Of a DNA stretch of 64,000 bases, positions 2 through 59,894 are shown one piece after another. Under the pieces are notes generated by a model. That model was not told where the DNA came from and ran no database searches. It saw nothing but the letters and a program-made list of their open reading frames with translations. The stretch covers positions 1 to 64,000 of the forward strand of contig NZ_JAVZIN010000003.1 of NCBI RefSeq assembly GCF_038871235.1, read 5' to 3'. A program made the position numbers and the translations under genes. Positions within the stretch are counted from its first letter, which is position 1; each line of letters starts with the position of its first letter. This stretch comes from Candidatus Hadarchaeum sp. GTDB taxonomy: Archaea; Hadarchaeota; Hadarchaeia; Hadarchaeales; Hadarchaeaceae.

Positions 2-1297
2 TTCCCCAACCTGAAGCGGGTGATCAAGGAGTACGACATCAGGTTCGATCCGGAGCAGATCGTCTTCTCCGACGACTCCCTGGCCGACGACCTCTGGAAA
101 GCCGCTTGGGATTTCTACTTGTCTGTTGGTAGCTACTGTACGAGCACTTACCGCAGGATTCTTTTTACTGAAAGGGAAATCAAGGAAGCCATGTCTTGTT
201 ACGTTGAAGAAGTGTATGTAGGTGAGGGTAAAGATCGAAGAAGGTGGACCCCTAGAAAGGTTGAGGATACAAAGCTGCCAGGTTGCGGATTTACTCCTGT
301 GGGCGTAAGATGCGACGAAGATTTGTTTATTCCGTATGTCATGGCTTATGTCATGGAGCCGCTGGCCGATGCCGTTTCCACACCAGTGCTTGAAGACATT
401 GAAGGTTTGGAAATAAAAACAGGTGCCCCTTCAGAAATCCGAGGGGCCGTGGTACATGCGATGTTGGCAAGACAGGCGGCCAGACGGGCTGGCAGGCCAG
501 GAATTGCCATCACGCTTACAGGGACAGCTTTGTTGGCAGCAGCTCAAATTGCGACTAGCGTCCCTGAGTGGGGATGCAAGCCCACTGATATAAGATGGAC
601 ACCAATTCTGAGCGAGTTAAAGATTGGTAATGATGAACTTGATAAAATGATTCACTTCCACCAGAATGGCTATGTGGCTGGATGTCTAGTAGGACCGATA
701 GTCGGAGGCTATGCGGGACCAGAAGGTACTGCCATCATCGCCATTGCCTCCCACATCATGGGGCTTGTAGTCAACCAAGGCTACATCACCTGCAACTTCC
801 CATTCGAGATAAAGAACTTCTCAACGACCACGAAGGAATGCTTGTGGACAGTCAGTGCTATTTATCAAGCATTGGCTAGGAACACCAGATTTATCACTTT
901 ATCCAACGGTTTTGCTGCAGCTGGTCCATGTACCGATATGGTTCTTTACGAGACAGCCGCCCACGGAATCACCAGCGCGGTTTCTGGAGCGAGCGTTCTC
1001 TGGGAGTCTGCGGTTGCTTCGAACAAATACAAGGAAAGGGCCACGCCGATGGAAGCAAGAATGGCGTGTGAATCAGGATTAGCCGTGGTAAAGTCACATA
1101 TGAAGCGTGAAGACGTTAACGAGATCGTCAAGGAACTTTTGAAGAGGTATGAAAGTAGAATAAGCTCACCACCGCTGGGCAAGACCTTCCGAGAATGCTA
1201 CGATGTTGAGAAGAAGAAACCAACGCAGGAGTACGTGGAGCTTTACGAGAAGATTAGAAAAGAGCTACAGGACTTGGGCATCGAATACGAGTACTGA
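2..1297 (+). CDS. mtmB: Monomethylamine:corrinoid methyltransferase (MtmB) family protein, non-pyrrolysine; 5'-partial
   Basis: Frame is open from the window edge (FPNLKRVIKEYDI). MtmB motifs GRPG, ELKI, PIVGGYAG, AGPCTDM, TPMEARM, GKTFRECYDV. No in-frame TAG; the Pyl position is Thr (ACG, 512-514). Confidence 0.9.
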   Translation, partial: FPNLKRVIKEYDIRFDPEQIVFSDDSLADDLWKAAWDFYLSVGSYCTSTYRRILFTEREIKEAMSCYVEEVYVGEGKDRRRWTPRKVEDTKLPGCGFTPVGVRCDEDLFIPYVMAYVMEPLADAVSTPVLEDIEGLEIKTGAPSEIRGAVVHAMLARQAARRAGRPGIAITLTGTALLAAAQIATSVPEWGCKPTDIRWTPILSELKIGNDELDKMIHFHQNGYVAGCLVGPIVGGYAGPEGTAIIAIASHIMGLVVNQGYITCNFPFEIKNFSTTTKECLWTVSAIYQALARNTRFITLSNGFAAAGPCTDMVLYETAAHGITSAVSGASVLWESAVASNKYKERATPMEARMACESGLAVVKSHMKREDVNEIVKELLKRYESRISSPPLGKTFRECYDVEKKKPTQEYVELYEKIRKELQDLGIEYEY

Positions 1298-1386
1298 TCT
1301 TTGGTTCCGGCCGCGGCTGAAGCCATTTAGGGCCCTTATTTGGGACCAATATTTTTATCCACCTAAGCAAATGTAGTTGGGGTAAA

Positions 1387-2313
1387 ATGGTTGAACCTAT
1401 AGTCGTCGACGGCATAGTTTACGCTGCTCTTTTGGCCTGTATGACGATTGGTTTTACCCTAATCCTAATGTCTACGAAGATTTGGAACTTTGCCTACGGG
1501 TCTATGGCGACTACTGGGGCATATATTTCTTTGACCGCCGCTGAGGTTTGGAAACTATCTATTTACAGCCAATTGGTAACTGCCTTTGTCCTCTCTGGAC
1601 TCATATCATTTGCCTTGTATCGGTTCTTAGTCAGACCTCTGAGCCTAAGAGGCATCTCGCTCGATGGACTATTTGTGCTGACTTTTGCGTTTAATTTCGT
1701 TCTCTTAGGTTTTTTAAACATCTATGCAGATTATTTGACGAATGTTTTCAAACTGCGTGCGAGGTTGTTCTTCCTTAGAGGGGCAGACATACAGATCTTC
1801 GGAACCCCAGGCGTGGTAATAATTTCTCCGTTGCTGGCGGTAGCTATAATCATAATTTTGCATCTTTTCTTGACCAGAACAAAGTTCGGCACAGCCATGC
1901 GGGCGACCATTGAGAACCCTCCTCTTGCAGGCAGCGTGGGCGTGAATGTTAACTTAGTCTACTCAACAGCTTGGTTTCTAGCTGGTGGACTCGCGGGTTT
2001 AGCTGGCGCGCTGCTTCCACTTTGGATTTTGTGTTATCCAAATATCGGGGACGTGATCATGTTAAGCGTTTTCGCTGCCAGTATACTCGGTGGTATCCAC
2101 AGCATCTATGGTGCGTTGTTGGGCGGCTTTATCGCAGGATTGGCTGAGATCTGGGGGACATCAGCTCTGGCCGGAGTGCTCGGCTCGGCAGTAATTCAGT
2201 ACCGGCCCCTCATCCCGCTGATCATAGTGGTCGTCTTCTTCCTAACCGCACCTGAGGGAATAACAGGAATCGAATGGCGTGGGAAGCTGACTAAGAGAAT
2301 AAGAAAAGTTTAG
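1387..2313 (+). CDS. livH: Branched-chain amino acid ABC permease (LivH-like)
   Basis: Polytopic membrane protein with NFAYG, RTKFGTAMRA..ENP.LA..VGVN and FAASILGG..SIYGALLGG. Confidence 0.88.
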   Translation: MVEPIVVDGIVYAALLACMTIGFTLILMSTKIWNFAYGSMATTGAYISLTAAEVWKLSIYSQLVTAFVLSGLISFALYRFLVRPLSLRGISLDGLFVLTFAFNFVLLGFLNIYADYLTNVFKLRARLFFLRGADIQIFGTPGVVIISPLLAVAIIIILHLFLTRTKFGTAMRATIENPPLAGSVGVNVNLVYSTAWFLAGGLAGLAGALLPLWILCYPNIGDVIMLSVFAASILGGIHSIYGALLGGFIAGLAEIWGTSALAGVLGSAVIQYRPLIPLIIVVVFFLTAPEGITGIEWRGKLTKRIRKV

Positions 2314-2335
2314 TTCAATTTGTTGGCTCGTTGGT

Positions 2336-3505
2336 TTATTTTTCCTGAAGAGTTTCAACGATTCTTGATATTCCCGTCACTACTTGTTCATACGGCGCTG
2401 AGTAGGAAATTCTGAGATGTCCTCTGCCGCTCTCACCGAATCCCGAACCGGGGGCAGTGCAAACGTGCGTTTTATTTAGGAGTTCCTTGGCAAGATTTTC
2501 ATCGTTTTTTCCCCACCTTGAAAAATCAGGGAATACATAAAAGGCGCCCTTTGGTCTGACGTAAGAAATTCCAGGAAGTTTTTCTAACTCTTTGAGCACA
2601 GCTTTTCTTCTTCGTTCGTATTCTTGGCGCATTTTTTCCACGCAATCCTGTGGCCCGGTCAAGGCGGCCAGAGCTGCTTTTTGAGCTACGGAGCTGGGGC
2701 AGAGGACTAAATAATAATGTAGCTTGTTTATTTCTCTCGCCAACGCGCCTTTAGCCGCGGCATATCCTATTCTCCACCCAGTCATGGCGTAGGCCTTGGA
2801 GAATCCGTTTACGGTTATAGTTCTGTCCTCGGCGCCTGGGAGTGAACCAATGCTTATATGTTTGGCATTATCATAAGTCAGCTTTTCATAGATCTCATCG
2901 GAAAATATCAACAGGTCATGTTTTTTGGCCACCTCCACGATTATTTCTAAGTCCTCCCTGGTAAAGACATGACCTGTTGGGTTGCTGGGGCTGCATATCC
3001 AGATTAGTTTTGTTCTTGAGTCAATTCTTTTTTCCAGTTCCTCTTGGTTCACTCGATAGTTTTCTTCTTCATTTAAGGGTACTGGCACCGGTACCGCGCC
3101 CGCTATTAATGTGTCCTCAAAGTAGGCAGGATAGTAAGGCTCCAGTACCAATGCCCTGTCCCCCGGGTTCAGAAAGGCCAATGCAGCGATTGCCATCGTC
3201 TCCTGAGTGCCAGAAACTATCACGACTTCGGTTTTTGGATCCACATCAATGCCGTTTTCCCGCGATAGCTTCTCGCTCACGGCTTCTCTCAGTTCCAACA
3301 TTCCTTGCGTCTGTGTATAGTGGGTATAACCCTCATCCATCGCTTTTTTTGCGGCATCCAGTATATGCTTGGGCGTGATGAAATCAGGTTCTCCTTGCTC
3401 CAGATGAATGACGTCTTTCATGCCAGCGCTTAGGTCGATCATTCTTCTGATGGCGGACGGTTTGATAAACTTAAGCCTCTCTGCCGATAAATTTTCGTTT
3501 TTCAT
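2336..3505 (-). CDS. PLP-dependent class I aminotransferase (Asp/aromatic type)
   Basis: GEPDF, SPSNPTG, SDEIYE, GFSKAYAMTGWRIG (PLP Lys), GAFY. Confidence 0.92.
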   Translation of the reverse strand: MKNENLSAERLKFIKPSAIRRMIDLSAGMKDVIHLEQGEPDFITPKHILDAAKKAMDEGYTHYTQTQGMLELREAVSEKLSRENGIDVDPKTEVVIVSGTQETMAIAALAFLNPGDRALVLEPYYPAYFEDTLIAGAVPVPVPLNEEENYRVNQEELEKRIDSRTKLIWICSPSNPTGHVFTREDLEIIVEVAKKHDLLIFSDEIYEKLTYDNAKHISIGSLPGAEDRTITVNGFSKAYAMTGWRIGYAAAKGALAREINKLHYYLVLCPSSVAQKAALAALTGPQDCVEKMRQEYERRRKAVLKELEKLPGISYVRPKGAFYVFPDFSRWGKNDENLAKELLNKTHVCTAPGSGFGESGRGHLRISYSAPYEQVVTGISRIVETLQEK

Positions 3506-3652
3506 AAATATCCACGTTCAACTAAATTTTTTAGTTTATATTTCTTTAGATTTCAAAATTTTTTACATTATCTCAAATTTTATTGTTTGCAAGATTTCCT
3601 TAAAAATGGATAAAGGTTAAATAATTCACTGTTTAATTAAAAAAGAAAAACA

Positions 3653-4681
3653 ATGGCCGCCATTGACTTCTTGCTGGACATGTTGGCGACAGTCGGCGTT
3701 TTTTTAATATTAACTTTAAGTTTAAATCTGGACGCAGGTTATTGCGGGATTCCTAATTTTGGCAAAGTTTTGGCCATGATCGCAGGTGCCTTTGTTGTGG
3801 CGTTTTTCCCAGGCAGAATCCTAGCTTCAATTTTAGGTCTAAGCGGCGATTTTGTTGTGGATAATGCCTCCATGATATTTCAAATAAATAACTTTCTTGC
3901 TTCAGACATTCTAATTAGCGTGGCGCTGTTTATCGCTACAATAATCGTTGCTGTTGGGTTTGGCATGTTGGTGGGTTATGTTTCGACTCGCCCAGCGGTT
4001 AAAATAGGAAGCGGCCCGTTAGCGATCATGTTGTTAGCGATGGGGGAAGGGATGAGAGTGATCGGCATTAACTACGCTCCATTGGCCGGTGGAAGCATAG
4101 GTATTTCAGCTCCTGATGTTTTCGCATGGGCGGGCGGGGATAGATTTGTTGTTGCGTCTGTCGTATTGTTTGCTTTTTCTGTCGCCATTTTCTTTTATAT
4201 CAACCGTTTAACCAATGCACCACTAGGTAGAATGCTGAGGGCCGTCAGAGACAACGAGATCGCTGCTGAGTCTCTCGGGATAAATATCGTAAGCGTGAAA
4301 CTTAAGACAATGATGATTTCATCAGCAATTGCTGCCATTGCCGGAGCCCTATATGCCTTTTACTCCGGGGCTGTTATCAGCACCGCCTACACGCGAGCTT
4401 CATGGACATTTATACCTTGGGCCATGATGTTACTAGGTGGGTCGGCCAACAACGTAGGTGTGGTTGGTGGTGTCTTTACTTTTGTCTTTCTTCGAAAAAT
4501 AATAGTCATGTATAAAACAGAATTAGGCCCATATCTTCCTTTCGATGTTTTGTGGCTTGAACTTATACTTTACGGGGTTATGGTTATCTTGATACTTCTA
4601 TACAGACCCGAGGGTTTAATACCTGAGAAAAGGACAAAAACCTTAGACCTAGGCACGATAAAAAAGCTGCAGAAGGCTTAA
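3653..4681 (+). CDS. livM: Branched-chain amino acid ABC permease (LivM-like)
   Basis: SLNLDAGYCGIPNFG, GRMLRAVRDNEIAAESLGIN, RPEGLIPE. Confidence 0.88.
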   Translation: MAAIDFLLDMLATVGVFLILTLSLNLDAGYCGIPNFGKVLAMIAGAFVVAFFPGRILASILGLSGDFVVDNASMIFQINNFLASDILISVALFIATIIVAVGFGMLVGYVSTRPAVKIGSGPLAIMLLAMGEGMRVIGINYAPLAGGSIGISAPDVFAWAGGDRFVVASVVLFAFSVAIFFYINRLTNAPLGRMLRAVRDNEIAAESLGINIVSVKLKTMMISSAIAAIAGALYAFYSGAVISTAYTRASWTFIPWAMMLLGGSANNVGVVGGVFTFVFLRKIIVMYKTELGPYLPFDVLWLELILYGVMVILILLYRPEGLIPEKRTKTLDLGTIKKLQKA

Positions 4682-5391
4682 CCACCTTTTTTTATTCCGA
4701 GGTAGACCTTGCCGAGTTCGGGGTGTGCTAATAGATTCTTTGCGCTACCCTTGTAGGCCACTTTTCCGCTAGTCATAAGTATCGCGTCGTCGGCTAGTTG
4801 TAGCGCCTTTTTCGCCGCCTGCTCGATTAGGACGATTGTGATTCCCTTTTCATGGAGTTCTAAAATCTTCTTCAATACTTCATTTGCCGCCTTTGGTGAG
4901 AGGCTGGCCACGGGCTCGTCAAACAAGATCATCTCTGGCTTTCTCATCATCGCCATGGCCATGGCCACCATTTGTCTTTCGCCACCACTAAGAAACCCGC
5001 ATTTCTTTCCCAAGTATTTTTTCACAATCGGAAATTCCTCTATGGTTTCTGCGATGCGTTTTTTGGTATCTTCCTTAGACAGCGTGTAACCAGCCAACAT
5101 CAGGTTCTCTTCCACAGTTAGGTTACCAAAGACATTTCCCGTCTGGGGTAGGTATGAGATGCCTCGTTTGGTCACAAGGTGGGTTGGTAAATGGGTAATG
5201 TCTTCATCCTTGAAAAGTATTTTGCCGGAGTATACCTTGGTTAGCCCCATTATTGACTTAATCAATGTACTTTTGCCGCTGCCGTTTGGTCCCACGATGG
5301 TAACAATTTTGCCCTTCTTTATGTTCACATCGACATCAAAAAGCACTTGAAATTTTCCATAGCCAGCGTTCAATCCATTGATTGTTATCAT
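4678..5391 (-). CDS. livF: ABC ATPase (LivF-like)
   Basis: Walker A GPNGSGKS, LSGGERQM, LFDEP, LTVEENL, YLG at C-terminus. Confidence 0.92.
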   Translation of the reverse strand: MITINGLNAGYGKFQVLFDVDVNIKKGKIVTIVGPNGSGKSTLIKSIMGLTKVYSGKILFKDEDITHLPTHLVTKRGISYLPQTGNVFGNLTVEENLMLAGYTLSKEDTKKRIAETIEEFPIVKKYLGKKCGFLSGGERQMVAMAMAMMRKPEMILFDEPVASLSPKAANEVLKKILELHEKGITIVLIEQAAKKALQLADDAILMTSGKVAYKGSAKNLLAHPELGKVYLGIKKGG

Positions 5392-6159
5392 CTACTCACC
5401 TAGGTAGCTTTCAATTACTTTTTCATCGTTAAGAACTTCTTTAGGCTTACCCTCTGAGATAATGTTTCCTCTGTCCATGGCATAGACGTAATCGACATAT
5501 GGCAGAACTGGCTCCAACCTGTGCTCGATGATTAAAAAGGTTATTCCCATCTTCTTTTTCAAGTCAACAAAATGCCTGAACATCTTGTCGATCAAGCTAG
5601 GGAACACACCAGCGGCCGGCTCGTCCATCAGTATCATTTTAGCCCCACTCATCAAAGCTCTGGCCGTTTCAAGAAGCTTCATCTGTCCACCGCTAAGTTC
5701 TGAAGCTTTCTTATCCCACATGTGCGATAGACCAACCGTGTTGAGGATTTCAAAGGCTCTTTCCGTGGCCTCCTTTTCCTCATTTATCCATGTTTTTTTC
5801 ACGCAGGCCTTAAGGAAATTTGTCCCAGGGTTCTCCTTGCAAGCGGCGAGCACATTTTCCAGAACCGTCAGCTTAGTGAACAGCTGGGGGATTTGAAATG
5901 TTCGCACTAAACCCTGTCTGCAAACCTCATCGGCACGGCATTTGGTGATATCTTTGCCGTTGAAAATTACCCTACCTTCATCAGGCCTGTAAATACCGGA
6001 AACAACGTTTATTAAAGTGGTTTTGCCGCTGCCGTTTGGTCCAATTAGCATCACAAGCAGTTGTTTTTTAACCTTCATGTTCACGTTGTCAAGAGCAACT
6101 AAACCGCCAAAAGTCTTCCTGATCCCCTCGATAACTAGCAAATCTTCTTTTGTCATCAT
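5392..6159 (-). CDS. livG: ABC ATPase (LivG-like)
   Basis: FGGLVAL, GPNGSGKTT, RTFQ, LSGGQ, MDEPAAG, IEH, VIESYLG. Confidence 0.92.
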   Translation of the reverse strand: MMTKEDLLVIEGIRKTFGGLVALDNVNMKVKKQLLVMLIGPNGSGKTTLINVVSGIYRPDEGRVIFNGKDITKCRADEVCRQGLVRTFQIPQLFTKLTVLENVLAACKENPGTNFLKACVKKTWINEEKEATERAFEILNTVGLSHMWDKKASELSGGQMKLLETARALMSGAKMILMDEPAAGVFPSLIDKMFRHFVDLKKKMGITFLIIEHRLEPVLPYVDYVYAMDRGNIISEGKPKEVLNDEKVIESYLGE

Positions 6160-6291: not shown

Positions 6292-7317
6292 TTGCATAAA
6301 TTTAAGGCGGTAATAGAGCACGCCACGTTTCATGACATAGCTATGGAACGTGAAACTTTGGGGAGGATGGGAGTTGAGGTTGTTGATATCGTTGAAACTG
6401 GTGCGGACATCAGAAAGGAGGCAGTGGACGCCGATGCCATTATGATTGAAACTGAAACCATTGACAGGGACATCATTTACTCCACGAAAAAATGCAAGAT
6501 TATCGCCGTCTACGCAACTGGCTATGATAATATCGACGTGAAAGCCGCAACTGAAAAAGGCATCTTTGTGACCAACGCAGGAAATTATTGTTCTGAAGAA
6601 GTTCAGGATCATACTTTGGCCCTGATCATGGCGAGCGTGCGAAAGTTATTCATGTATTCCCAAGCAGTGAAATCCGGAAACTGGGAGCAGAAGTTGGGCA
6701 GACCGGTTCGGAGTTTGCTGGACCTGAAGGACTTGGGTGTGCCGATTAAAGGGATTCCGGACACAACTCTGGGAATATTTGGTTTCGGCCGCATCGGTCG
6801 AGGACTATGTAGAAAAGCGAGATGCATAGGATTTAAAGTAATCGCACACGATCCTCTTGTTCCTGAAGATCAAATAATTAAAGAGGGAGCCACGCCAGTG
6901 AGCTTCGAAGAACTACTGGAGAAATCAGATGTAATTTCAATTCATGCCCCCCTGACTGAGGAAACTAGGCACAAATTCTCCTATAATGAGTTCAAGAAAA
7001 TGAAGAAGACTGCTATCCTAGTGAATGCCAGCCGTGGGGCTATCTTGGATGAAGCGGCCCTAATAAAAGCCTTGAAAGAGGGGGAAATTCAAGCAGCTGC
7101 ACTGGATGTTTTGGCGGAGGAGAACCCGCCCTCCGAGGACAACCCACTCTTCAAATTAGACAACGTGATCGTTACACCACATTGCGCCTTTTACTCGGAG
7201 AGATCCCAGATGGAGCTTCGGAGAAGAATTTTGAACCAGGCAATGCAGGCGCTAAGGGGGGAAGTCCCCGATAATCTTGTCAACAGGGAAGTCCTCGCCA
7301 AGCTCGGTGTAAAATGA
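6292..7317 (+). CDS. D-isomer-specific 2-hydroxyacid dehydrogenase (CtBP/SerA-like)
   Basis: GYDNIDV, GFGRIG, HAPLT, NASRG, LDVLAEE, TPHCAFYS. TTG start after a GGTGA RBS. Confidence 0.92.
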   Translation: MHKFKAVIEHATFHDIAMERETLGRMGVEVVDIVETGADIRKEAVDADAIMIETETIDRDIIYSTKKCKIIAVYATGYDNIDVKAATEKGIFVTNAGNYCSEEVQDHTLALIMASVRKLFMYSQAVKSGNWEQKLGRPVRSLLDLKDLGVPIKGIPDTTLGIFGFGRIGRGLCRKARCIGFKVIAHDPLVPEDQIIKEGATPVSFEELLEKSDVISIHAPLTEETRHKFSYNEFKKMKKTAILVNASRGAILDEAALIKALKEGEIQAAALDVLAEENPPSEDNPLFKLDNVIVTPHCAFYSERSQMELRRRILNQAMQALRGEVPDNLVNREVLAKLGVK

Positions 7318-7371: not shown

Positions 7372-8361
7372 ATGATAGATCTAGCCATAGCAGATTTAAA
7401 GTTCCCTCCACCTGGCATTGTGATAAGGGAGCTGATGCGAGAGATCTCAAAGATAAATTATTATCCATCTGGGGACTATTTGGAAATCAAGCAGGCTTTT
7501 TGCGATTATTTAAGACCCGACGTTTCGTTGGGTCCTGAAAACTTGGTGTTTGGTAATGGGTTGGATGAGATAATTGACCTTGTCACTAGAGTTTGGGGTG
7601 GCGTGAACTTAATTCCAGCTCCGACCTTCAGCCAATACTCAATGGCCGCTGCGAGATCTGGTCATAGAGAGATAAGCTCGAACATGTTACATCAAGGGAA
7701 GTATGATCTAGATTTTGATGAGGCTGATCTAAGGAAAGCTAGTTTAGTTTGGATATGCAACCCGAACAACCCTACCGGAGATTTGATCTCGCGCAAGAAA
7801 ATTGAGCAGGTTATTAATAGCGCTAGGGGCATGGTGGCGGTTGACGAGTGTTATTATGAATACACTGAAAAAACTGTTGTTGATTTGATAAAAGATTGCG
7901 AAAATCTGATTGTTTTAAGGAGCTTCTCGAAGAATTTCGGCATTGCTGGTTTGAGGCTGGGCGTGGCGATATCAAGTCCGAAGAATATCATGAAAATAGA
8001 GAGGATTAGGCAACCTTTCAATGTGAATCGGCTGGCCGAGAAAGCTGGCGTGATTGTTCTGAGGCATAAAAATGAATACAAAAAAATTTGGCAGAGGGTG
8101 CTGAAAATAGGCAAAAAATTTGCTGCGGAGATCAAAAGAATTGGTTATAGACCGTTCCCAGTTAACGCAAACTTTGTCCTCGTTGATTTTTTGGACGAGA
8201 CCAAAGCTAGTGAGGCCTATCTGAAGTTGAAAGAGGGCGGCATAAAGACTTACCCCGGCTGGAGCGAGGAGGACTTCCAAGGTAGCCTAAATCAACACAT
8301 AAGATTCGCAATCGGTGCCGAAAGGGACATGAATCTAGTTGTGAAAATTTTAAAGAGCTGA
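7372..8361 (+). CDS. HisC/CobD-like class II PLP aminotransferase
   Basis: GNGLDEII, CNPNNPTG, DECYYEY, RSFSKNFGIAGLRLG, ANFVL. Confidence 0.85.
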   Translation: MIDLAIADLKFPPPGIVIRELMREISKINYYPSGDYLEIKQAFCDYLRPDVSLGPENLVFGNGLDEIIDLVTRVWGGVNLIPAPTFSQYSMAAARSGHREISSNMLHQGKYDLDFDEADLRKASLVWICNPNNPTGDLISRKKIEQVINSARGMVAVDECYYEYTEKTVVDLIKDCENLIVLRSFSKNFGIAGLRLGVAISSPKNIMKIERIRQPFNVNRLAEKAGVIVLRHKNEYKKIWQRVLKIGKKFAAEIKRIGYRPFPVNANFVLVDFLDETKASEAYLKLKEGGIKTYPGWSEEDFQGSLNQHIRFAIGAERDMNLVVKILKS

Positions 8362-51814: not shown

Positions 51815-51818
51815 AATC

Positions 51819-53330
51819 TTGCTGAAGAAAATTCCATTCTGTGTAAACTGGCGTGACAAACAGGAGGAGTCAAAAGCCTTAGGCGAAGTCCCGACCCTTA
51901 TCGGCTATCTCACCATGGCCATGAAAATAACGCCGAATCTAGAGCGAGCCTGTGCCTTTGCCAGCGAACAGCTCGGAGGTAAAATGGGTCAAGATCTGAG
52001 AAAAAAGATGTCGGAGTGCCATATGCGTCGATATTCCAGCGCTGATGAGGCACTGTTGAAGTTCTCGCAATGCTGGGAGAGGGCCTGCCCCGAACTCGGC
52101 CGGGCAATCTATCTCATCCGCAGTTCTGTTAGCGAGCTGAGGAAGAGCAGCCGGGAGATGACCTTGGATCGATCCCTTCAGCTGGTTCTGCATGGAGCTA
52201 GGCGGCGGGTGCGTGAATTCTCTTCAAAGATAAGCCCACCTACTCTGTTGATCTACAGCTTGGGTATTCTGCTCCCGCTGGTCTTCGTTGTCATCTTGCC
52301 GGTGCTTTCTGTAATCGAGCTGCGAGTGGGTCTGCCTCAGATAATCTTTATTTACTGTTTCTTACTGCCTTTGCTAGTCTATCTTCTGAGCAACAATGTC
52401 CTTTCCCGGCGACCGGCCACACATCAACCGCCAAATGTTTCGATTGGAGCGAGTCAGTTGCATTCGGCATTAATGGCCATTGCTTTTTCGATACCTGCGC
52501 TGGCCATTTGTTTTTGGCTTGATGCATCTCCTGATCTCAAGGCCTTAGCCGTTCTTTGGGCGATTGTTCTTAGCATTTCAGCATTTCTATATTTTACCTC
52601 CGTCCAAGCCTATCTTCACCGTGAGGAGATCGTTCAGATGGAGGGGGAGTTCAGCGATGCCTTGGTGCAGCTCGGCAACCGCATAAGCGAGGAGCGCCCG
52701 GCTGAGGAGGCCTTAGGGCACGTGGCAGCCACGATGGGTGGGAGCAAGCTCGCCGGTGTCTTCATGACTGCGGCTTCGAACGTTAACCTTGGCGGCATGG
52801 GCTTACGTGCGGCCTTGTTTGATGAGACACGTGGGGCACTTAGGCAGGTGAACTCAAACATGATTCGCGGAACATTGAAGATACTTGTGGACTTGGTCGA
52901 GAGGAACACCCGGGCCGCTGGTGAGGCGATTCTTCGGACGGCGCAGCATCTTCATGAGCTGAAAGAGGCCGAGGAAGAAATGAAACGATCGATGGCGGAG
53001 ATGGTTACTTCAATGCGGTCGGTGGCCATCTTCTTTGCGCCTTTGATCACCTCGATCGCGGCTAGGCTTCAGGGACTGCTGTCGGAAAAGGTAGCCTCGC
53101 TTGAGTTTTTTCTTTCAGCCGAGATTTCCCCTCCGGCCTTTTTATTCGTCCTCGGGCTGTACATCATTATCCTGACCATCATCCTGATCAACTATGTGGT
53201 TGAGATAGAACTGGGTGAGGATGGGCTGGCCAAGCGAATGGCGTTTGCAAGCGCTTTGCCGGTTTCAATGGTTGTTTTCACCGCGGGAGCGATATTAGGC
53301 GGGCAAGTTGTTGCTTTCCTTCTAGGTTAA
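51819..53330 (+). CDS. TadB/TadC (FlaJ-like) membrane platform, double domain
   Basis: PNLERA..FA, GILLPL, EFSDAL..LGNR..E..PAE.A, FFAPLI; directly after the ATPase. Confidence 0.82.
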   Translation: MLKKIPFCVNWRDKQEESKALGEVPTLIGYLTMAMKITPNLERACAFASEQLGGKMGQDLRKKMSECHMRRYSSADEALLKFSQCWERACPELGRAIYLIRSSVSELRKSSREMTLDRSLQLVLHGARRRVREFSSKISPPTLLIYSLGILLPLVFVVILPVLSVIELRVGLPQIIFIYCFLLPLLVYLLSNNVLSRRPATHQPPNVSIGASQLHSALMAIAFSIPALAICFWLDASPDLKALAVLWAIVLSISAFLYFTSVQAYLHREEIVQMEGEFSDALVQLGNRISEERPAEEALGHVAATMGGSKLAGVFMTAASNVNLGGMGLRAALFDETRGALRQVNSNMIRGTLKILVDLVERNTRAAGEAILRTAQHLHELKEAEEEMKRSMAEMVTSMRSVAIFFAPLITSIAARLQGLLSEKVASLEFFLSAEISPPAFLFVLGLYIIILTIILINYVVEIELGEDGLAKRMAFASALPVSMVVFTAGAILGGQVVAFLLG

Positions 53331-53497: not shown

Positions 53498-54937
53498 ATA
53501 GATGGAGAGGTTCTGATTGGCCTCGTAGCGTATGGCGTGATTCTGATCGCCCTGGGTTTGTATAGTTACATCAAAGCCAAGAATAGACACACGGAAGAGG
53601 AATACTTTTTAGCTTCTCGTGAGTTGGGTTTCTGGGCTCTGGTTTGCACCGTTGGAGCCTCGTGGACGGGAATTTCGGCACTGATTTCCTATAATGCCGC
53701 CTATACTGGTGGCGTAAGCACTTGGTGGATCATGGGATTCCCAACTGTTTTCGCCACCGCCATCGTTGCTGTTTTAGCCTATAGGATCAGGAAAACAAAC
53801 GCGATTTCCCAACCCCAGATCTTCGAATGGCGATACGGACCGAAGGTCAGGATAATTCTAGCAGTGATCGGCATCTGGTACATGATGACTTGGGCGGCAT
53901 CAGAACTTATCGGTGGCGGTGAATCCCTTTCTGTAGCGTTGGGCATGCCATACTTTTTAGGAATATTGGCCATTACATTAATAATCTACTTCTATACCGT
54001 CATTGGTGGCTTCAGGGCGGTTATATACACCGACATATTTCAGTTCATTTTGCTCAACGTTGTGTGCATTGCGCTAAGCCTTATTGCCCTGAGTTCCATT
54101 GGCGGATTTGGAGCCATCGCTTTGCTCCCACAAGAGCTGGGTGTTCCGGGTTATCTGGACTTTTTTGATAACTTTAGGTATAATTTTGCTTACGCCATAT
54201 CCTTTTCCTTGGCTTGGTTCTTAGAGGCAGACATGTGGCAGAGAATACTGGGCGCTAGAAATCCCAAGCTGGCGATGAAGGCGTTCTTGGTTGCGGCAAT
54301 ATTGTTCATCCCCTTATACTTCATTTATACGCTGGGAGGTATGGCAGCGGCAAAGTTTGTGCCTGGCTTGGAAGGCGTTGGGGTTCTGCCTTCTTTAGCA
54401 AAAGCAGCATTGCCTCCCATATTGTTTGGTTTTGCCCTTGCAGGCATTTTGGCCACTGTGATGTCATCCGCCGACACCGCCATAAACTCGGGCGCTTTGT
54501 TGTTAACAGAGGACGTTTATCACAGATATATTAACAAGAAAGCAACTACCAAGGGATTATTCGTGGTGGGGCTGATTGCCACCACCGTTATAACCGTATT
54601 GGCCTTCGGCGTCGGAGTTACTCTTCCAGACATGCTGTGGGTGTTGTGGCTGGGAGCCGATATTCTGGCCTGCGGTTGTCTGGCTCCACTGATTGGTGGA
54701 TTTATCTGGAAGCGGGCAAATGAGCTAGGGGCCATTGCTGGGATGATAGTGGGAGGCGTGTTTGCATTCTACAACTACGTTGGCGATCTGTTTGGCATTG
54801 AAGTGCCCAGGCCTTGGCCTGAGTATCCGTTTTACCTTCCTGTTGGTATCCTGCTGTCAGCGATCGCCTTTATCTTAGTTTCCTTGGCCACAAAACCACA
54901 GCCTGAAAAGTTTAAGGCGTTAAAACCGAGTGATTAA
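53498..54937 (+). CDS. Sodium:solute symporter (SSS) family
   Basis: EYFLASR, RYG, YTVIGGFRAVIYTD.FQ, WQRI, MSSAD. Track start is GTG 53537; possible ATA start at 53498. Confidence 0.9.
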   Translation: MDGEVLIGLVAYGVILIALGLYSYIKAKNRHTEEEYFLASRELGFWALVCTVGASWTGISALISYNAAYTGGVSTWWIMGFPTVFATAIVAVLAYRIRKTNAISQPQIFEWRYGPKVRIILAVIGIWYMMTWAASELIGGGESLSVALGMPYFLGILAITLIIYFYTVIGGFRAVIYTDIFQFILLNVVCIALSLIALSSIGGFGAIALLPQELGVPGYLDFFDNFRYNFAYAISFSLAWFLEADMWQRILGARNPKLAMKAFLVAAILFIPLYFIYTLGGMAAAKFVPGLEGVGVLPSLAKAALPPILFGFALAGILATVMSSADTAINSGALLLTEDVYHRYINKKATTKGLFVVGLIATTVITVLAFGVGVTLPDMLWVLWLGADILACGCLAPLIGGFIWKRANELGAIAGMIVGGVFAFYNYVGDLFGIEVPRPWPEYPFYLPVGILLSAIAFILVSLATKPQPEKFKALKPSD

Positions 54938-54939
54938 AG

Positions 54940-56790
54940 ATGGCTCCAGCTCCCTGCTACTGCGGGAAGATTCTGGAGGTCGATTTGTCTAGTATCAATA
55001 TTGTTAAGCGTTCGGTGGATCCAAATGTGGTAAGGAAGCTGGTGGGTGGTAAAGGTCTGGCTGCTTGGTTGCTGTATAAAATGGTTAAGCCAGGGATTGA
55101 TCCATTTGACGAACAGAATGTGCTGATTTTTGCTACCGGTCCACTGACGGGCACCATAGCCCCTTCACAGAGGGGATTGGTCTGTGCCAAGTCCCCGCTG
55201 ACGGGAACTTTTTCTGATTCCTATTTCGGCGGCCACTTCATCCAAGAGCTCAAATACGCTGGTTATGATGCTCTGGTGGTGAAGGGAAGAGCGGAGAGGT
55301 TGAGCTATCTTTGGATCGACGATGATCACGTTGAGGTAAAGGACGCCACTACTTTGAAGGGACAGGATACTACTCAGACCAACGTTTCTATTAAGCGGGA
55401 ACTGGGGGATTCCCGGGTCAAGGTGGCCTGTATTGGTCCGGCGGGCGAGAAAAAGGTGAGGTTTGCTCTGATCGACTGTGATGTCAAGAGACAAGCGGGC
55501 CGTGGCGGTCTTGGGGCGGTGATGGGATCAAAGAACCTTAAAGCCGTGGCCATCCGCGGCACGGGCCCCGTTGAGGTGGCGAGGCCTCAAGAGTTCTTCG
55601 AAATAGCGAAAAAGTTCCACCGCATTTTAATCGAAAGCGAGGCCGTGCAGGCGGTGTGGAGCCGGTACGGTACGGCGGGGTCGGTTGAGTTCTCCAACAT
55701 GCAGGGCTTCTTCCCGACCAAGAACTTCCAAGATGGACATATCGAGAATGGTGAAAGGCTCTCAGGACTTTCGCAGAGCAAGCTGCTCTGGCTGAGGCGG
55801 GCGGCCTGCTTCTCCTGTCCGATCATCTGCTCCGCCATCTCAGTTATCAGAAATGGTCCTTACAGCGGCACGGTGTTGGACGGCATAGAGTATGAGACCA
55901 CAGGGCTACTGGGAGCCAACTGCGGACTCACCGACCCAGAGGTGGTCGCCTACGCCAACCACCTCTGTGATGAGCTCGGTCTGGACACCATCACTGCTGG
56001 TGGCGTGATCGGTTTCACCATGGAACTGTTCGAGAGAAGGATCTGGAGACACCCAGAGCTGGAGGCGCTGAGACTGAGATTTGGCAACGCTGAGGCAGTG
56101 CTCGAGCTGATTAGTAAGATAGCCTACCGTGAAGGAGTTGGTGATTTGCTGGCTGAGGGGGTGAAGCTAGTCGCGGAGAAGGTTGGAGGAAGTGCTAAGG
56201 ATTACGCTATACACATCAAAGGATTGGAGACCCCAGCTTGGCCACCCCGAGGTTCTCCAGGGATGGGGCTAGCACTAGCGACTGCTGACAGAGGCGGTTG
56301 TCACGAGAGAGGATGGCCGGTGGGCTATGAAGTTGAGGGAATTCCCGGGCCTTCTGGTCCGGTGGAGCGTCTGTCGCTCCAAGGTAAGGCCGAGATAGTA
56401 AAGTGGGAGCAGGACTGGTTTGCTGCGGTTGACACCTTGGTTGGCTGCGATTTCAGCCGAACCGGACTCACGCCGGAGCATTCAGCACAACTTCTTTCTG
56501 CAGCCACTGGATGGGACATCAGTGCTGACGAATTCCTGAGAATTGGTGAGCGAGTTTGGAACTTAACACGAATGTTTAATGTCCGCGAGGGCTTCACACG
56601 GAAGGATGATGACCTGCCTAGACGATTTAAGGAGGAGCCGCTACCCTTCGGACCAGCAAAAGGGCACATGGTCAGTTCCAGCGATCTGAACCGGATGCTT
56701 GATGATTATTACAAGTTAAGGAAATGGGACTCGAACGGAGTGCCGACAAAGGAGAAGCTGGCGGAGCTGGGCCTTGAGGAGTTCCTGTGA
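54940..56790 (+). CDS. aor: Tungsten aldehyde:ferredoxin oxidoreductase family
   Basis: KSPLTG, LKYAGYD, IGPAGE, GRGGLGAVMGSKNLKA, CFSCPIIC, EYET, DELGLDTI, RGGCH. Confidence 0.93.
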   Translation: MAPAPCYCGKILEVDLSSINIVKRSVDPNVVRKLVGGKGLAAWLLYKMVKPGIDPFDEQNVLIFATGPLTGTIAPSQRGLVCAKSPLTGTFSDSYFGGHFIQELKYAGYDALVVKGRAERLSYLWIDDDHVEVKDATTLKGQDTTQTNVSIKRELGDSRVKVACIGPAGEKKVRFALIDCDVKRQAGRGGLGAVMGSKNLKAVAIRGTGPVEVARPQEFFEIAKKFHRILIESEAVQAVWSRYGTAGSVEFSNMQGFFPTKNFQDGHIENGERLSGLSQSKLLWLRRAACFSCPIICSAISVIRNGPYSGTVLDGIEYETTGLLGANCGLTDPEVVAYANHLCDELGLDTITAGGVIGFTMELFERRIWRHPELEALRLRFGNAEAVLELISKIAYREGVGDLLAEGVKLVAEKVGGSAKDYAIHIKGLETPAWPPRGSPGMGLALATADRGGCHERGWPVGYEVEGIPGPSGPVERLSLQGKAEIVKWEQDWFAAVDTLVGCDFSRTGLTPEHSAQLLSAATGWDISADEFLRIGERVWNLTRMFNVREGFTRKDDDLPRRFKEEPLPFGPAKGHMVSSSDLNRMLDDYYKLRKWDSNGVPTKEKLAELGLEEFL

Positions 56791-56800
56791 GGTAGGTCCT

Positions 56801-57211
56801 ATGCCAATCAAGCTGGAAATTCACCCGGAAAAATGCGTTGGCTGCAGGTCATGTGAGCTGGCTTGTTCCTTCAAAAAGACCGGCGTGTTTAGCCCGAGTC
56901 AGTCGCGGATATCGGTCACGATCAGCAACCCTCGGACAATAATGTATCCTGTGGCCTGCATCCAGTGCGTCGAGCAGTCATGCGTCAAGGCCTGTCCGGT
57001 TGGGGCGCTAAGAAAAGACGAGGTCACCAACGCCATTGTCTTTGACCGCGATATCTGTACGGGCTGCGGCCTGTGTGTGAAAAGCTGTCCGTATTCAGCG
57101 ATAAGGATGGATGAAAGGAGCAGAAAGCCCCTGATTTGCGATCTTTGCGGCGGTGATCCCGAGTGTGTAAAGTGGTGCCCCACTGCCGCTCTTGAAGCCA
57201 AAAGAGTTTGA
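56801..57211 (+). CDS. 4x[4Fe-4S] electron-transfer subunit (AorA/DmsB-like)
   Basis: CVGCRSCELAC, CIQC..CVKACP, CTGCGLCVKSCP, CDLC..CVKWCP. Confidence 0.93.
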   Translation: MPIKLEIHPEKCVGCRSCELACSFKKTGVFSPSQSRISVTISNPRTIMYPVACIQCVEQSCVKACPVGALRKDEVTNAIVFDRDICTGCGLCVKSCPYSAIRMDERSRKPLICDLCGGDPECVKWCPTAALEAKRV

Positions 57212-57237
57212 AGTTCTAGTTGTTCGCTCAGTCTAGT

Positions 57238-58446
57238 TCAGATATTTCCTTCCCAAATATCTCTTAGCAATGCCTTGATATTTTCTAGCGTAATTACTGC
57301 AGGATTGATATCGGGCAGTCCGTAGTTGTACTGTTGTTCCTTGGCGATGAAAGCGGCCAGTTCATCCAAGTCTTCACGTGGGACGTTTAACTCCTTCAGA
57401 CTGATGGGCATGTTGAGGTCTAGGAGCAGCTCCTTGAGTCCCTCGACCACTTGAAGCGCTCTTTTTTTCACATCTTTCGCCGGTTCATCGGTGAAGAATT
57501 GTGCCAGCGAGGCGACCCTCTCCGGCCAAGCGGCGATATTGAATTTAGTTATATAAGGCAGAACCAAGCCGCAGGCGGCTCCATGAGGTATGTGGTAACG
57601 GGGACCAATGGTTTCACCAAGACAGTGGCCAATGTTGACGGCAGCAGGTGTGGTTATCGCGATGCCTCCGTAGGTGGCTGCCAAGGCCATGCCTGCTCTC
57701 GCGACCAGATCTTTTCCGTGATGATAGGCCCTTCTCAGATGCCTAGCGGCGAGTTCCACAGCCCGGTAGGCGTAGGTGTCTGAGAACATGTTAGCCGTGA
57801 ATGAAAGAACGGCCTCAACTCCATGGGAGAGGGCATCAAGTCCGGTGTGCGCAGTCAGTTTCGGTGGCATCGACTGAGAAAGAGTTGGGTCAACAATGGC
57901 TACTTCCGAGACGATTTTTGGACTCATCACGAAACCCTTGTAGCCCTTCTCTTCAATAACCACCGCGTAACCCGAGGCCTCGCTGCCGGTACCGGCGGTG
58001 GTGGGGATGAGTATCTTGGGGACTGGTTGCACCTTTATGCTGTCCTGAAGGTAGGTGATGTAGTCTTTCATTGGTCCCGGGTTGGTGACGGCAGCGGAGG
58101 CAAATTTAGCCATATCTAGAGCACTGCCGCCTCCAAAGCCGATGACCAAGGCTGGCTTTTCGGCTCTAGCCTTTTCAGCAACCTTCTCCACCATGCTTAT
58201 GGTGGGTTCTTGCGTGGCTTGGTCATAAACGGTCAGGGTGTATTTTTCTTCCTCCAGTGGTTTTAGGATCCTGTTCACCAGCCCTATGTTGATTAGGTTC
58301 TTGTCGGTTACGATCAGGATTTTAGAACCCTTCAGAGCTAAGGGCTCTATTTCGCGGCAAATGTTATCAACCGCATTTGGTCCAAAGATATACTTTTTTG
58401 GGTAATTGAACTCCACATATCCAATATTTGAGATTTCCTCAGACAT
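57238..58446 (-). CDS. Iron-containing (type III) alcohol dehydrogenase
   Basis: GGGSALD, PTTAGTGSE, DALSH, GH, PHG. Confidence 0.92.
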   Translation of the reverse strand: MSEEISNIGYVEFNYPKKYIFGPNAVDNICREIEPLALKGSKILIVTDKNLINIGLVNRILKPLEEEKYTLTVYDQATQEPTISMVEKVAEKARAEKPALVIGFGGGSALDMAKFASAAVTNPGPMKDYITYLQDSIKVQPVPKILIPTTAGTGSEASGYAVVIEEKGYKGFVMSPKIVSEVAIVDPTLSQSMPPKLTAHTGLDALSHGVEAVLSFTANMFSDTYAYRAVELAARHLRRAYHHGKDLVARAGMALAATYGGIAITTPAAVNIGHCLGETIGPRYHIPHGAACGLVLPYITKFNIAAWPERVASLAQFFTDEPAKDVKKRALQVVEGLKELLLDLNMPISLKELNVPREDLDELAAFIAKEQQYNYGLPDINPAVITLENIKALLRDIWEGNI

Positions 58447-58448
58447 GG

Positions 58449-58459
58449 GTGAAGTTCAC
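58449..58459. promoter_or_regulatory. Palindrome GTGAA-G-TTCAC, candidate operator of the Fe-ADH gene
   Basis: Lies between a TTTTTATTTA box and the ATG on the minus strand. Confidence 0.35.
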
Positions 58460-58511
58460 ACGTTAGTAAATAAAAATGTTTTGTCCAAATTTTTTGAAAT
58501 TTTTAATCGGA

Positions 58512-59894
58512 CTAAATAAGAACAGGCACGCCTAGATCTATTATTTTCTTTTTCACGTTATTATACAGTTCAGTGTATTCTTTAGTTGGTACCACACGCT
58601 TGATGTCGTAACATTCTTGGAATTTTTTACCCAGCGGGGCGTCTTTGATCTTCCCCTCGTATTCTTTCAAGAGTTTCTTAGCTAACTCGTTTGTCTCATC
58701 CCTCTTTAATCCCGCCTTGGCTGCAGCGCGGCCTACCTCACAGGCCATTCTTGCTTCCACAGGGGTGGTCCTATCTTTGTATTTATTCCTTGCTGCAAAA
58801 AATTCCCAGAGGTTAGCACCGGAGACGGTGCTTACTAAACCATGGGTGGCGGCCTCAAGGAGTACCATCTCTGTGCATGGTCCAGCAGCGCCGATACCGT
58901 TTGACATGCTAAGGAAGGGAGAATTTCTTGCTAAAGCTTGATAGACCAAGCTGATCATCCAAAGAAGATTTCTTGAGGTATTATTGAGTTGATTTATATC
59001 AAAGGGGAAAAACGTGTCGAGGTGTCCTTGATTCACCATTAATCCCTGTAAATGAGTCGCCACGCTAACTATTGCTGTGCCTTCTACACCACCGGCATAT
59101 CCGCCAACCATCGGACCAAATAATGACATGATGATGTATCCGCATTTGTGGAAGTTGACCATTCTGTTAAGACCTCCCCAGTCGATCTTCAGTTCTGATA
59201 TCGTTCCGACCATTCTGCCATCGGTAGTCCTAACGCCCCATTCGGGATTGCTCACAGAGATTTGGGCGGTGTCCGACAGCGCGGTTTGAACATCCGCCAA
59301 GTATATGTTTGGCCTGCCCACTCGCCTCACCGCTTCCCTTATCATCAAGGCATGTGCTCCAGCTCCAGCAACATCAGTTGGTGCTTTTGACCTTACCTTT
59401 TCACCCCACAGTTCATCAAGCACTCCCGCCCCGACGCCATCCGCAAGCGGTTCCAGCGCGTAGGCCATTTCAACGATGGCGAAAAGTTCCTCGGAAAAAG
59501 GCAGGCTCGGGCTGAACACGCAAAAAGGTCTTCTTCTGTCTTCAATATCCCTGTGATATACTTCCCTTCTTTCCGTTCCAGATCCGACCACAATTTTTTC
59601 CGGAAAGCTGATCAAGGCTTCCTTTATCTCTTCTTCGGTAAACATGATTCTTCTGGAGGTCTCGAGGCACAGGGTCCCCGTGTGCAGGTAGAGTTCTAAG
59701 CCTGCCTTCCAGAGATCGTCTGCCAAGCTGTTGTCCGATGGAATAATGGTTTCACCATCGAACTTTATATCATACTCCTTTATCAACTCCTTAATCTTTG
59801 GAAACAGTATTTTTGTATCGAAGTCTTTTTCCATACACAAGGGGCCGTTTTCAGATCTTCTTAAAACTTCAGGTATTCTCCAGGGTGGTGCCAT
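58512..59894 (-). CDS. mtmB: MtmB family methyltransferase, non-pyrrolysine
   Basis: Full length 460 aa; GRPN, ELKID, PMVGGYAGG.EGT, AGPCTEM, GKKFQECYD. The Pyl position is Ala (GCG, 59295-59297). Confidence 0.93.
   Translation of the reverse strand: MAPPWRIPEVLRRSENGPLCMEKDFDTKILFPKIKELIKEYDIKFDGETIIPSDNSLADDLWKAGLELYLHTGTLCLETSRRIMFTEEEIKEALISFPEKIVVGSGTERREVYHRDIEDRRRPFCVFSPSLPFSEELFAIVEMAYALEPLADGVGAGVLDELWGEKVRSKAPTDVAGAGAHALMIREAVRRVGRPNIYLADVQTALSDTAQISVSNPEWGVRTTDGRMVGTISELKIDWGGLNRMVNFHKCGYIIMSLFGPMVGGYAGGVEGTAIVSVATHLQGLMVNQGHLDTFFPFDINQLNNTSRNLLWMISLVYQALARNSPFLSMSNGIGAAGPCTEMVLLEAATHGLVSTVSGANLWEFFAARNKYKDRTTPVEARMACEVGRAAAKAGLKRDETNELAKKLLKEYEGKIKDAPLGKKFQECYDIKRVVPTKEYTELYNNVKKKIIDLGVPVLI

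Follow-up and report, generated by a model that had tools for sequence, protein, structure and literature searches.

The monomethylamine:corrinoid methyltransferase MtmB of Methanosarcina barkeri (1L2Q/1NTH/1TV2) carries pyrrolysine (Pyl) at position 202, and a corrinoid protein is encoded adjacent to it. Homologs of MtmB without Pyl were recognized long ago, although no role could be assigned to them, and they have been noted in Asgard archaea (PMC13044021, 2026). The only one that has been characterized, and the only one with a known substrate, is MtqB of Methanococcoides methylutens Q3c, which methylates cob(I)alamin at rates of 37 nmol/min/mg with tetramethylammonium, 42 nmol/min/mg with choline and, weakly, 11 nmol/min/mg with methylamine; it is 78% identical to its AM1 homolog and branches near the Pyl enzymes (PMC13044021). 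The same logic is found for the glycine betaine methyltransferase MtgB (PDB 2QNE/9YCE), where a Pyl family also has Pyl-free members that act on other methylated amines together with a corrinoid protein and RamA. Here, two Pyl-free MtmB-family paralogs, designated gene 1 and gene 2, are described from a stretch of 64,000 nucleotides of Candidatus Hadarchaeum sp. (the window).

Databases name the relatives of these genes 'monomethylamine:corrinoid methyltransferase', and mtmB and mttB have been counted as mono- and trimethylamine systems in seven Bathyarchaeia orders by a survey in whose available text the word pyrrolysine occurs 0 times (PMC10321748). Acquisition and duplication of these methyltransferase genes have been reported for one hot-spring family (PMC8407382), and Pyl genes for a metagenome-assembled genome (MAG) of Bathyarchaeia (PMC9723677). 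In the literature on Pyl-free MtmB and on MtmB of Bathyarchaeia, no paper was found that assigns a substrate to the clade of genes 1 and 2. A preliminary description of the window had stated that no substrate is settled for non-Pyl MtmB, which does not hold for MtqB with its use of tetramethylammonium and choline (PMC13044021).

The analysis suggests, with a probability of about 0.7, that genes 1 and 2 encode substrate-specific corrinoid methyltransferases with different substrates other than methylamine.

Pyrrolysine site, pocket residues and predicted fold

The window comprises the first 64 kb of contig C3 (G000:C3:1-64000) of a genome of 1.205 Mb in 16 contigs that is 94.75% complete (G000). 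In gene 1 (2..1297, + strand), the open frame covers 431 of about 462 codons; its 5' end is cut by the contig start, so that about 31 N-terminal residues are missing; full-length relatives have 462 aa (P0114, 98% identical). Gene 2 (58512..59894, - strand) is complete with 460 aa. For each protein, PF05369 (MtmB) is the single Pfam match, with 326.1 bits for gene 1 (profile positions 32-450) and 356.7 bits for gene 2 (5-449) against a cut-off of 25 bits; Pfam matches were reported at E <= 0.001. At this threshold neither protein matches PF06253, the family of the non-Pyl MttB superfamily, and neither of them has a match among the NCBIfam models.

The stretch was found in nine sequencing runs with DNA contigs, eight from hot-spring metagenomes and one, with a small share, from a seawater metagenome, and one more run was added; no RNA run was among the runs holding it. 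In a second sample, which belongs to what is probably the source study, a single contig spans positions 58120-60866 with 0 differences and thereby confirms this DNA, and two runs of another study contain short identical pieces of the stretch.

In a phmmer search against the Protein Data Bank, M. barkeri MtmB was the only protein matched (1L2Q/1NTH, 1TV2-4), with E values of 1.4e-63 for gene 1, which aligns to residues 41-457 of 1L2Q, and 4.3e-78 for gene 2, and with about 34% identity over the full length. Pyl202, which is given as X in 1L2Q, aligns to Thr in gene 1 (GRPGIAI-T-LTGTAL; Thr171 of the partial protein, codon ACG at 512..514, + strand) and to Ala in gene 2 (GRPNIYL-A-DVQTAL; Ala200, codon GCG at 59295..59297, - strand). 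Residue positions were also counted by hand in both HMMER alignments to 1L2Q. From named genomes, 33 related loci were taken, and 21 of them were translated. Eight had one in-frame TAG at the Pyl site and ten had none, while three (L038, L040, L043) were left out for several stops in the translated span. A MAFFT alignment of the genome's own paralogs with 18 related loci, including the eight TAG-type genes, placed the Pyl site in the same columns as phmmer. The only in-frame stops of the two genes are the terminal ones, TGA in gene 1 and TAG in gene 2, and there is no internal TAG.

The glutamates E205, E229 and E259 are presumably the catalytic acids of MtmB, for which a literature search found no paper stating it. 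In the HMMER alignments as well as in the MAFFT alignment, gene 1 has G/W/L and gene 2 has Q/M/L in their place, and no conserved glutamates are present at these positions. At M. barkeri positions 202-205 / 228-229 / 259-260 / 333, the signature of gene 1 is T-L-T-G / R-W / L-V / N and that of gene 2 is A-D-V-Q / R-M / L-F / N, whereas the eight TAG-type genes have X-G-x-E (Q in one of them), H228-E229, E259-Q260 and Q333. Thus, all TAG-associated residues (E205, H228-E229, E259-Q260, Q333) are replaced in both window genes. Read-through of both genes, Thr and Ala at the Pyl site and the exchanged glutamates had all been noted in the preliminary description and were confirmed. Its remodelled active sites also stand for both genes, but they are no peculiarity of this pair: in an alignment of 165 sequences the complete E/E/E set is present in seven of eight TAG-type genes, as opposed to 0 of 157 non-Pyl homologs, which makes loss of the acidic site the rule among Pyl-free MtmB homologs. 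Position 202 of the latter is occupied by L, V, I, G, T, M, S, A, C and further residues, and in the six full paralogs of G000 by T, A, V, Q, V and V.

The MtmB fold is predicted to be retained. An AlphaFold2 model of gene 2, the protein that was modelled, calculated from a 56-row alignment, reached a mean pLDDT of 94.9 and a pTM of 0.94, and Foldseek superimposed it on 1L2Q with a TM score of 0.94 and a root mean square deviation of 1.6 A over 452 columns at 34% identity. With MttB and MtgB, in contrast, the TM score was about 0.5. The active site of a TIM barrel is formed by the ends of its strands, and Ala200, Arg227-Met228 and Leu258 of gene 2 lie in or at the end of the successive predicted strands 198-200, 226-230 and 254-259. 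Alignment and modelling against the M. barkeri structure, which had been proposed as a check, gave a preserved predicted fold from which the Pyl site is gone.

In light of these replacements, monomethylamine is an unlikely substrate. Its continued use without Pyl, which would agree with the database names and with the low methylamine activity of Pyl-free MtqB (PMC13044021), has very little probability: besides the loss of all TAG-associated residues, a single substrate would give no reason for keeping six to seven paralogs that differ in their pockets, amino-acid-type transporters adjoin the genes, and the two congeners with a canonical TAG-containing MtmB also have pyl genes beside it (see below).

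Pyrrolysine machinery, relatives and conservation

Searches of G000 with hidden Markov models gave nothing over the cut-off for PylS and PylD (PylB and PylC were not searched), and neither tRNA-Pyl nor any other tRNA-CUA was among the 36 tRNAs found by ARAGORN. As a stop codon, TAG ends 140 of the 701 open reading frames (ORFs) of at least 250 aa in this genome, gene 2 included. A candidate suppressor tRNA at C14 c[14690-14788] ('gcta') was identified as tRNA-Ser(GCU) by Rfam alignment and has no CUA anticodon. At G000:C6:45465-45561 (L107:265-361), ARAGORN reported in its intron mode a 'tRNA-Stop (tta)' with a 24-nt intron; this element has a weak Rfam tRNA match of 26.4 bits, below the threshold of 29, is not of the CUA type and is probably a mis-parsed intron-containing tRNA.

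With the same tools, PylS (246 bits), PylD (214-220 bits) and tRNA-Pyl(CUA) were detected in two genomes of the same genus, G003 and G005, which served as positive control. In both genomes, these pyl genes form a cluster, and the gene of a canonical MtmB (757 and 749 bits), interrupted by a single in-frame TAG, is located at a distance of a few kb; pyl and MtmB genes together are found at G003:C22:238-9152 and G005:C6:21558-28165 (loci L092, L093, L096, L097). As the Pyl system is found by these tools in G003 and G005, the negative result for G000 is informative, which answers the preliminary description's suggestion to search for pyl genes. No Pyl genes were found in G000 and five other congeners, which have 3-7 MtmB copies, while G003 and G005 have at least 30 MtmB-family matches each in 1.4-1.8 Mb. 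One genus thus holds both Pyl-decoding and non-decoding species. In this genus, MtmB matches were present in 8 of 8 genomes, compared with 1 of 17 genomes in the remaining genera of its family and 1 of 16 in the remaining families of its order.

Genes 1 and 2 are both Pyl-free MtmB genes, as had been described, but they do not form a special pair. The whole genome has seven PF05369 matches, consisting of six full-length genes and, where contig C3 ends, one C-terminal fragment (G000:C3:118504-118743), none with an internal stop. Contig C3 starts within one MtmB paralog and ends within another, and gene 1 begins with approximately 45 residues that hardly differ from the paralog on contig C9 (window positions 2-140 versus G000:C9:37890-38024). 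The assembly probably broke on MtmB repeats, and further copies may be unassembled.

With a profile of the six paralogs, 1513 of 1.84 billion cluster representatives were matched at E <= 0.001, 399 of them also at E <= 1e-30. The alignment of 165 sequences consisted of the six own paralogs, 17 sequences from loci and 142 representatives, namely those of the best 150 that reach a length of 400 aa. Trees were calculated with FastTree (165 rows, 457 columns) and IQ-TREE in 'quick' mode (48 rows, LG+G4), with midpoint roots only, and their topologies agree on clade placement. Genes 1 and 2 share a clade with the C9 and C10 paralogs, P0141 and the loci L018 (Bathyarchaeia MAG), L019 (Thermoproteota MAG) and L020 (Heimdallarchaeota chromosome), with a local support of 1.0 in FastTree and an SH-aLRT of 99 in IQ-TREE, whereas the C1 and C3c paralogs fall into two further clades in both trees. 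In IQ-TREE, the TAG-type genes form a separate clade (99), which joins a Pyl-free Methanosarcinales clade (100) in a group of 18 rows (91). As the TAG-type clade is not sister to the clade of genes 1 and 2, these genes are not recent derivatives of Pyl enzymes by Pyl loss. The tree of non-Pyl MtmBs that had been suggested therefore places both genes in a Bathyarchaeia/Asgard clade far from the TAG-type and MtqB clades. Word-index searches with both proteins found hundreds of relatives, with Bathyarchaeia and Hod-, Odin-, Thor-, Heimdall- and Promethearchaeota as named sources, and the clade is widespread and common in Bathyarchaeia and Asgard archaea.

The Pyl-free Methanosarcinales clade was taken as the MtqB clade because of its source names and because of the AM1 identity and the branching described for MtqB (PMC13044021). 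It includes L044, the protein of which is 85% identical to P0290 of Methanococcoides methylutens and 80% identical to P0293 of Methanococcoides sp. AM1; the comparison was made via these three relatives and not with the Q3c sequence itself. Like genes 1 and 2, MtqB belongs to the non-Pyl MtmB family; it has its own adjacent corrinoid protein gene, and as a proven corrinoid methyltransferase it provides a functional precedent. However, genes 1 and 2 are each only 31% identical to P0290, no closer than to Pyl-dependent MtmB (34%), and the two types belong to separate clades (SH-aLRT 99 and 100), of which the MtqB clade groups with the TAG-type enzymes. In the present alignment, the pocket of the MtqB-like clade reads I/V/L-G-I-M, H-L, C-M/S, Y, as opposed to ADVQ-RM-LF-N in gene 2 and TLTG-RW-LV-N in gene 1, and none of its Met at position 205, His228, Cys259 and Tyr333 occurs in the window genes. 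In addition, the host of MtqB is a methanogen with coenzyme M (CoM) and methyl-CoM reductase, whereas no McrA was found in G000. The uncharacterized clade of genes 1 and 2 is thus distinct from MtqB.

In a wider alignment of 144 rows (137 word-index hits with a length of 420 aa or more, together with the six own paralogs and one TAG-type reference), Arg228 is present in 140 and Leu259 in 141 rows, while the residues at positions 202-205 define several types: KSVG (55 rows), QGVG (31), ADVQ (13), QSVG (13), VLTG (8), TLTG (3) and rarer ones. KSVG, the largest group with 55 of 144 rows, has a plain lysine at the position of pyrrolysine; in its member L020:6001-7377 on the Heimdallarchaeota chromosome, this Lys is encoded by a sense codon and the translation has no stop. 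The signature ADVQ-RM-L-N is present in all 13 rows of the gene 2 group (gene 2 and P0001-P0012, 63-100% identical to gene 2). TLTG-RW of gene 1 is shared by P0114, its own 98% cluster, and by P0103 (80%), but the nearest paralog of gene 1 on contig C9 (74-75% identical) has VLTG-RL, as have P0108 and others. Six barrel-strand-end segments are 40% alike between genes 1 and 2 versus 52% elsewhere, and 61% alike between gene 1 and the C9 paralog versus 77% elsewhere, all of which are descriptive figures.

Since the signatures are fixed within orthologous groups and different between them, they argue for different specificities and not for relaxed selection or decay. It is most likely that genes 1 and 2 act on different substrates, because they belong to different orthologous groups of one clade with group-specific pocket residues. 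The preliminary description had proposed two different pockets, and this is borne out by the Pyl-site loop and the barrel-strand ends; relaxed selection, which it had named as speaking against its proposal, is contradicted by the signatures fixed among orthologs. Its interpretation was right in kind and overstated in novelty, the observed genes being two of many Pyl-free MtmB paralogs. An interpretation of both genes as what is left of a lost methylamine pathway, either decaying or without catalytic function, is very improbable. Such remnants would fit with Pyl machinery that was not found here and is present in two congeners, and with the fact that most one-carbon pathway enzymes searched for were not found; they would not fit with intact frames, signatures fixed over 63-100% identity, conserved corrinoid partners, a clade that is not sister to the TAG-type clade, and a confident fold prediction.

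Gene neighborhoods and candidate substrates

Gene 2 is preceded, with one base between them, by a gene for a putative cognate corrinoid protein (59896..60558, - strand) with B12-binding_2 and B12-binding domains and the DxHxxG motif in the B12-binding domain (DIHDIG at residue 105); this partner had already been named in the preliminary description and was confirmed. The row of symporter, corrinoid protein and MtmB genes starts with a sodium:solute symporter (SSF) gene (60555..61988, - strand). Tblastn comparisons showed a corrinoid protein gene directly upstream of the MtmB gene in six of nine related loci (L018, L056-L060) and did not reveal one in L019, L020 and L061, whereas the symporter gene was present in L056 alone, which contains an ortholog 93% identical to gene 2.

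Downstream of gene 2 follows a gene with a domain match to iron-type alcohol dehydrogenases (57238..58446, - strand). Convergent to the row of gene 2, a second row encodes, likewise according to domain matches, another SSF symporter (53537..54937, + strand), an aldehyde:ferredoxin oxidoreductase (AOR; 54940..56790, + strand) and a 4Fe-4S protein (56774..57211, + strand). These genes bear on the possibility that gene 2, and perhaps gene 1, encodes an MtqB-like quaternary-amine methyltransferase for choline or tetramethylammonium, with the alcohol dehydrogenase and the AOR handling the amino-alcohol part. In favor of this, MtqB is the one non-Pyl MtmB with a described activity (PMC13044021), the alcohol dehydrogenase scores highest with the choline dehydrogenase GbsB among the NCBIfam models (232 bits), and the row of alcohol dehydrogenase, MtmB, corrinoid protein and symporter genes is spanned without differences by the second-sample contig mentioned above. 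However, the GbsB match falls far short of the cut-off (550) and is tied with sulfoacetaldehyde reductase (229 bits) and lactaldehyde reductase (225 bits), and the alcohol dehydrogenase gene is not found beside the 93% ortholog of gene 2 or in any other of the nine related loci. It was therefore rejected as a clue to choline, and its link to gene 2 is weak, although the adjacency itself is real in the second sample. Together with the 31% identity, the separate clades and the different pocket signatures, this makes a quaternary amine quite an improbable substrate.

Somewhat less improbable, though still unlikely, is a role of genes 1 and 2 as O-demethylases for methoxylated aromatic acids of the lignin-derived, vanillate type. 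In L056, a UbiD-like gene, belonging to the aromatic acid decarboxylase family, follows the gene 2 ortholog; an AOR is encoded nearby, the clade-wide Arg228 could bind a carboxylate, and Bathyarchaeia have been reported to demethylate methoxy-aromatics (PMC10989822). The O-demethylase 'MT1' of that system, which is also called 'MtgB', has about 300 aa, has no homology to known MT1s and represents a different family (PMC10989822), and it was rejected as being the same system. No MtmB-family member acting on O-methyl groups is described in the available parts of PMC13044021 or of related MtmB literature, and most paralogs are located with amino-acid transporters, aminotransferases and 2-oxoacid oxidoreductases. 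Methoxy-aromatic acids and quaternary amines are the main alternatives to the substrates considered in the following.

Gene 1 is located in an island for amino-acid uptake and fermentation. According to domain matches, it is directly followed by a LivH-type ABC permease gene (BPD_transp_2; 1387..2313, + strand), and further by genes for a class I/II PLP aminotransferase (2336..3505, - strand), a LivM-type ABC permease (3653..4681, + strand), two LIV-type ABC ATPases (4678..5391 and 5392..6159, - strand), a D-2-hydroxyacid dehydrogenase (6292..7317, + strand), a second class I/II aminotransferase (7372..8361, + strand), a 2-oxoacid:ferredoxin oxidoreductase of the indolepyruvate type (IOR; 9826..10434 and 10427..12301, - strand) and a subunit of an ADP-forming acyl-CoA synthetase (12298..13650, - strand). 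An MFS transporter is also encoded among the genes after gene 1. The set is that of archaeal amino-acid fermentation, and the corrinoid partner gene was probably lost beyond the contig start.

A transporter is encoded beside every MtmB paralog of G000, a corrinoid protein adjoins all four other full-length paralogs, and aminotransferases, IOR-type oxidoreductases and ADP-forming acyl-CoA synthetase are found beside gene 1 and other paralogs. The C9 paralog is accompanied by a corrinoid protein and a complete LIV-type ABC system. On contig C10, genes for a corrinoid protein, MttB and MtmB are flanked by two Peripla_BP_6 binding proteins. The row on contig C1 encodes EamA, a corrinoid protein, MtmB, a class III aminotransferase, a Pot-type ABC system and a corrinoid protein with MttB. 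The paralog at C3:104513 has an amino-acid permease and an IOR-type enzyme upstream. From there, the row G000:C3:104513-112705 (L054:5770-13962) starts with MtmB and a corrinoid protein and continues with a carbamoyltransferase-like gene, an amidohydrolase, an AOR and a dihydroorotate-dehydrogenase-like Fe-S protein; it looks like a set that degrades a compound of the ureido or hydantoin/pyrimidine type, and this compound may be N-methylated.

Provided that genes 1 and 2 encode substrate-specific methyltransferases as proposed, N-methylated, carboxylate-bearing amino compounds are favored, with slightly less than even chances. N-methyl amino acids or betaines are suggested by the clade-wide Arg228, the amino-acid-type and solute:sodium transporters, the aminotransferases and the 2-oxoacid oxidoreductases. 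Substrates larger than methylamine, as previously proposed, are plausible, while the class of N-, O- or S-methyl compounds is not readable from sequence.

Several points weigh against this interpretation. The activity of the enzymes, its direction, the substrate class and the methyl acceptor are inferred, and the pocket positions follow from alignment and predicted strand ends, not from coordinates. The upstream neighbor of gene 1 is cut off by the contig start. Transporter families do not fix a substrate, and members of Peripla_BP_6 and SSF presumably also carry aromatic and other carboxylates. The UbiD-like gene stands in the place of the alcohol dehydrogenase gene at the 93% orthologous locus, which hints at aromatic acids. 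The methyl sink is incomplete, as McrA, MtrH, CdhC, MTHFR, MCH and FTHFS were not found in the 94.75%-complete genome, and the methyl route after the corrinoid protein is conjecture. Finally, the low methylamine activity of MtqB without Pyl (11 versus 37-42 nmol/min/mg; PMC13044021) leaves a small probability for methylamine turnover.

Upstream of the symporter gene at 60555..61988, an Sso10a-family chromatin protein is encoded (62486..62794, - strand; 60.5 bits, cut-off 60), and a small ORF resembling it is found at the same place in L056. After a FlaI/TadA-type secretion ATPase (49631..51814, + strand), whose scores of 139 and 132 bits do not reach the equivalog cut-offs, comes an ORF of 503 aa (51819..53330) with no Pfam or NCBIfam match.

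Methyl-group handling and significance of the clade

In addition to the seven MtmB matches, G000 encodes three MttB-family proteins, MtaB, at least six corrinoid proteins, RamA and three proteins of the URO-D family, while MtbB had no match in this genome. The URO-D proteins are encoded at C1:32234-33316, at C13:22510-23616 and, fused to B12-binding domains, at C6:6272-8029. The latter is part of G000:C6:4619-8029 (L100:619-4029), where MtaB (667 bits) is followed by the fusion protein of 585 aa, which consists of an MtaA-like URO-D, a B12-binding_2 and a B12-binding domain. Mer was found over the cut-off (355 bits; C3:85172-86137), and serine hydroxymethyltransferase (SHMT) is also present. 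Within the genus, MCH was found only in the Pyl-positive G003 and G005. A Pterin_bind protein (C1:67171-68103) was considered as a tetrahydrofolate-type methyltransferase ('MT2') and rejected; it adjoins F420-0:gamma-glutamyl ligase and is more likely involved in cofactor biosynthesis.

According to the favored interpretation, both proteins would be intact, selectively maintained 'MT1' enzymes which have kept the TIM barrel of MtmB and have lost its Pyl-dependent methylamine site. Each MT1 would transfer the methyl group from its own small methylated substrate to the Co(I) of a dedicated corrinoid protein, which for gene 2 would be the protein encoded at 59896-60558, while the RACo/RamA-type activase (C4:6326-8284) would maintain the cobalt in its reduced state. 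From the corrinoid protein, the methyl group would be passed on by a URO-D-type MT2, most plausibly to tetrahydromethanopterin (H4MPT). Methyl-H4MPT could then be converted by Mer to methylene-H4MPT, from which SHMT would form serine with glycine, so that the methyl group would enter one-carbon and serine metabolism, and the demethylated product would enter amino-acid fermentation.

A more far-reaching and still tentative proposal is that the Arg228/Leu259 clade as a whole forms one family of corrinoid methyltransferases for N-methyl amino acids (or betaines), in which each group (ADVQ, TLTG, VLTG, QGVG, KSVG and others) is tuned to its own compound and the methyl group is channeled via H4MPT, Mer and SHMT into serine. 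If this were true, non-methanogenic archaea would turn N-methylated amino acids into ordinary ones for fermentation, a methylotrophy without methane formation, acetogenesis or respiration.

Reading the mtmB genes of this clade as methylamine use in surveys and databases is very probably wrong, because the Pyl codon and the residues that travel with it are lacking and no Pyl machinery was found in G000. The group-specific pockets and the islands for amino-acid uptake and fermentation provide a short list of candidate substrates that can be tested. Knowing the substrates of the clade would correct inferences on the carbon and nitrogen cycles that are drawn from metagenomes, and it would show which role methyl metabolism has in archaea without methanogenesis or the Wood-Ljungdahl pathway.

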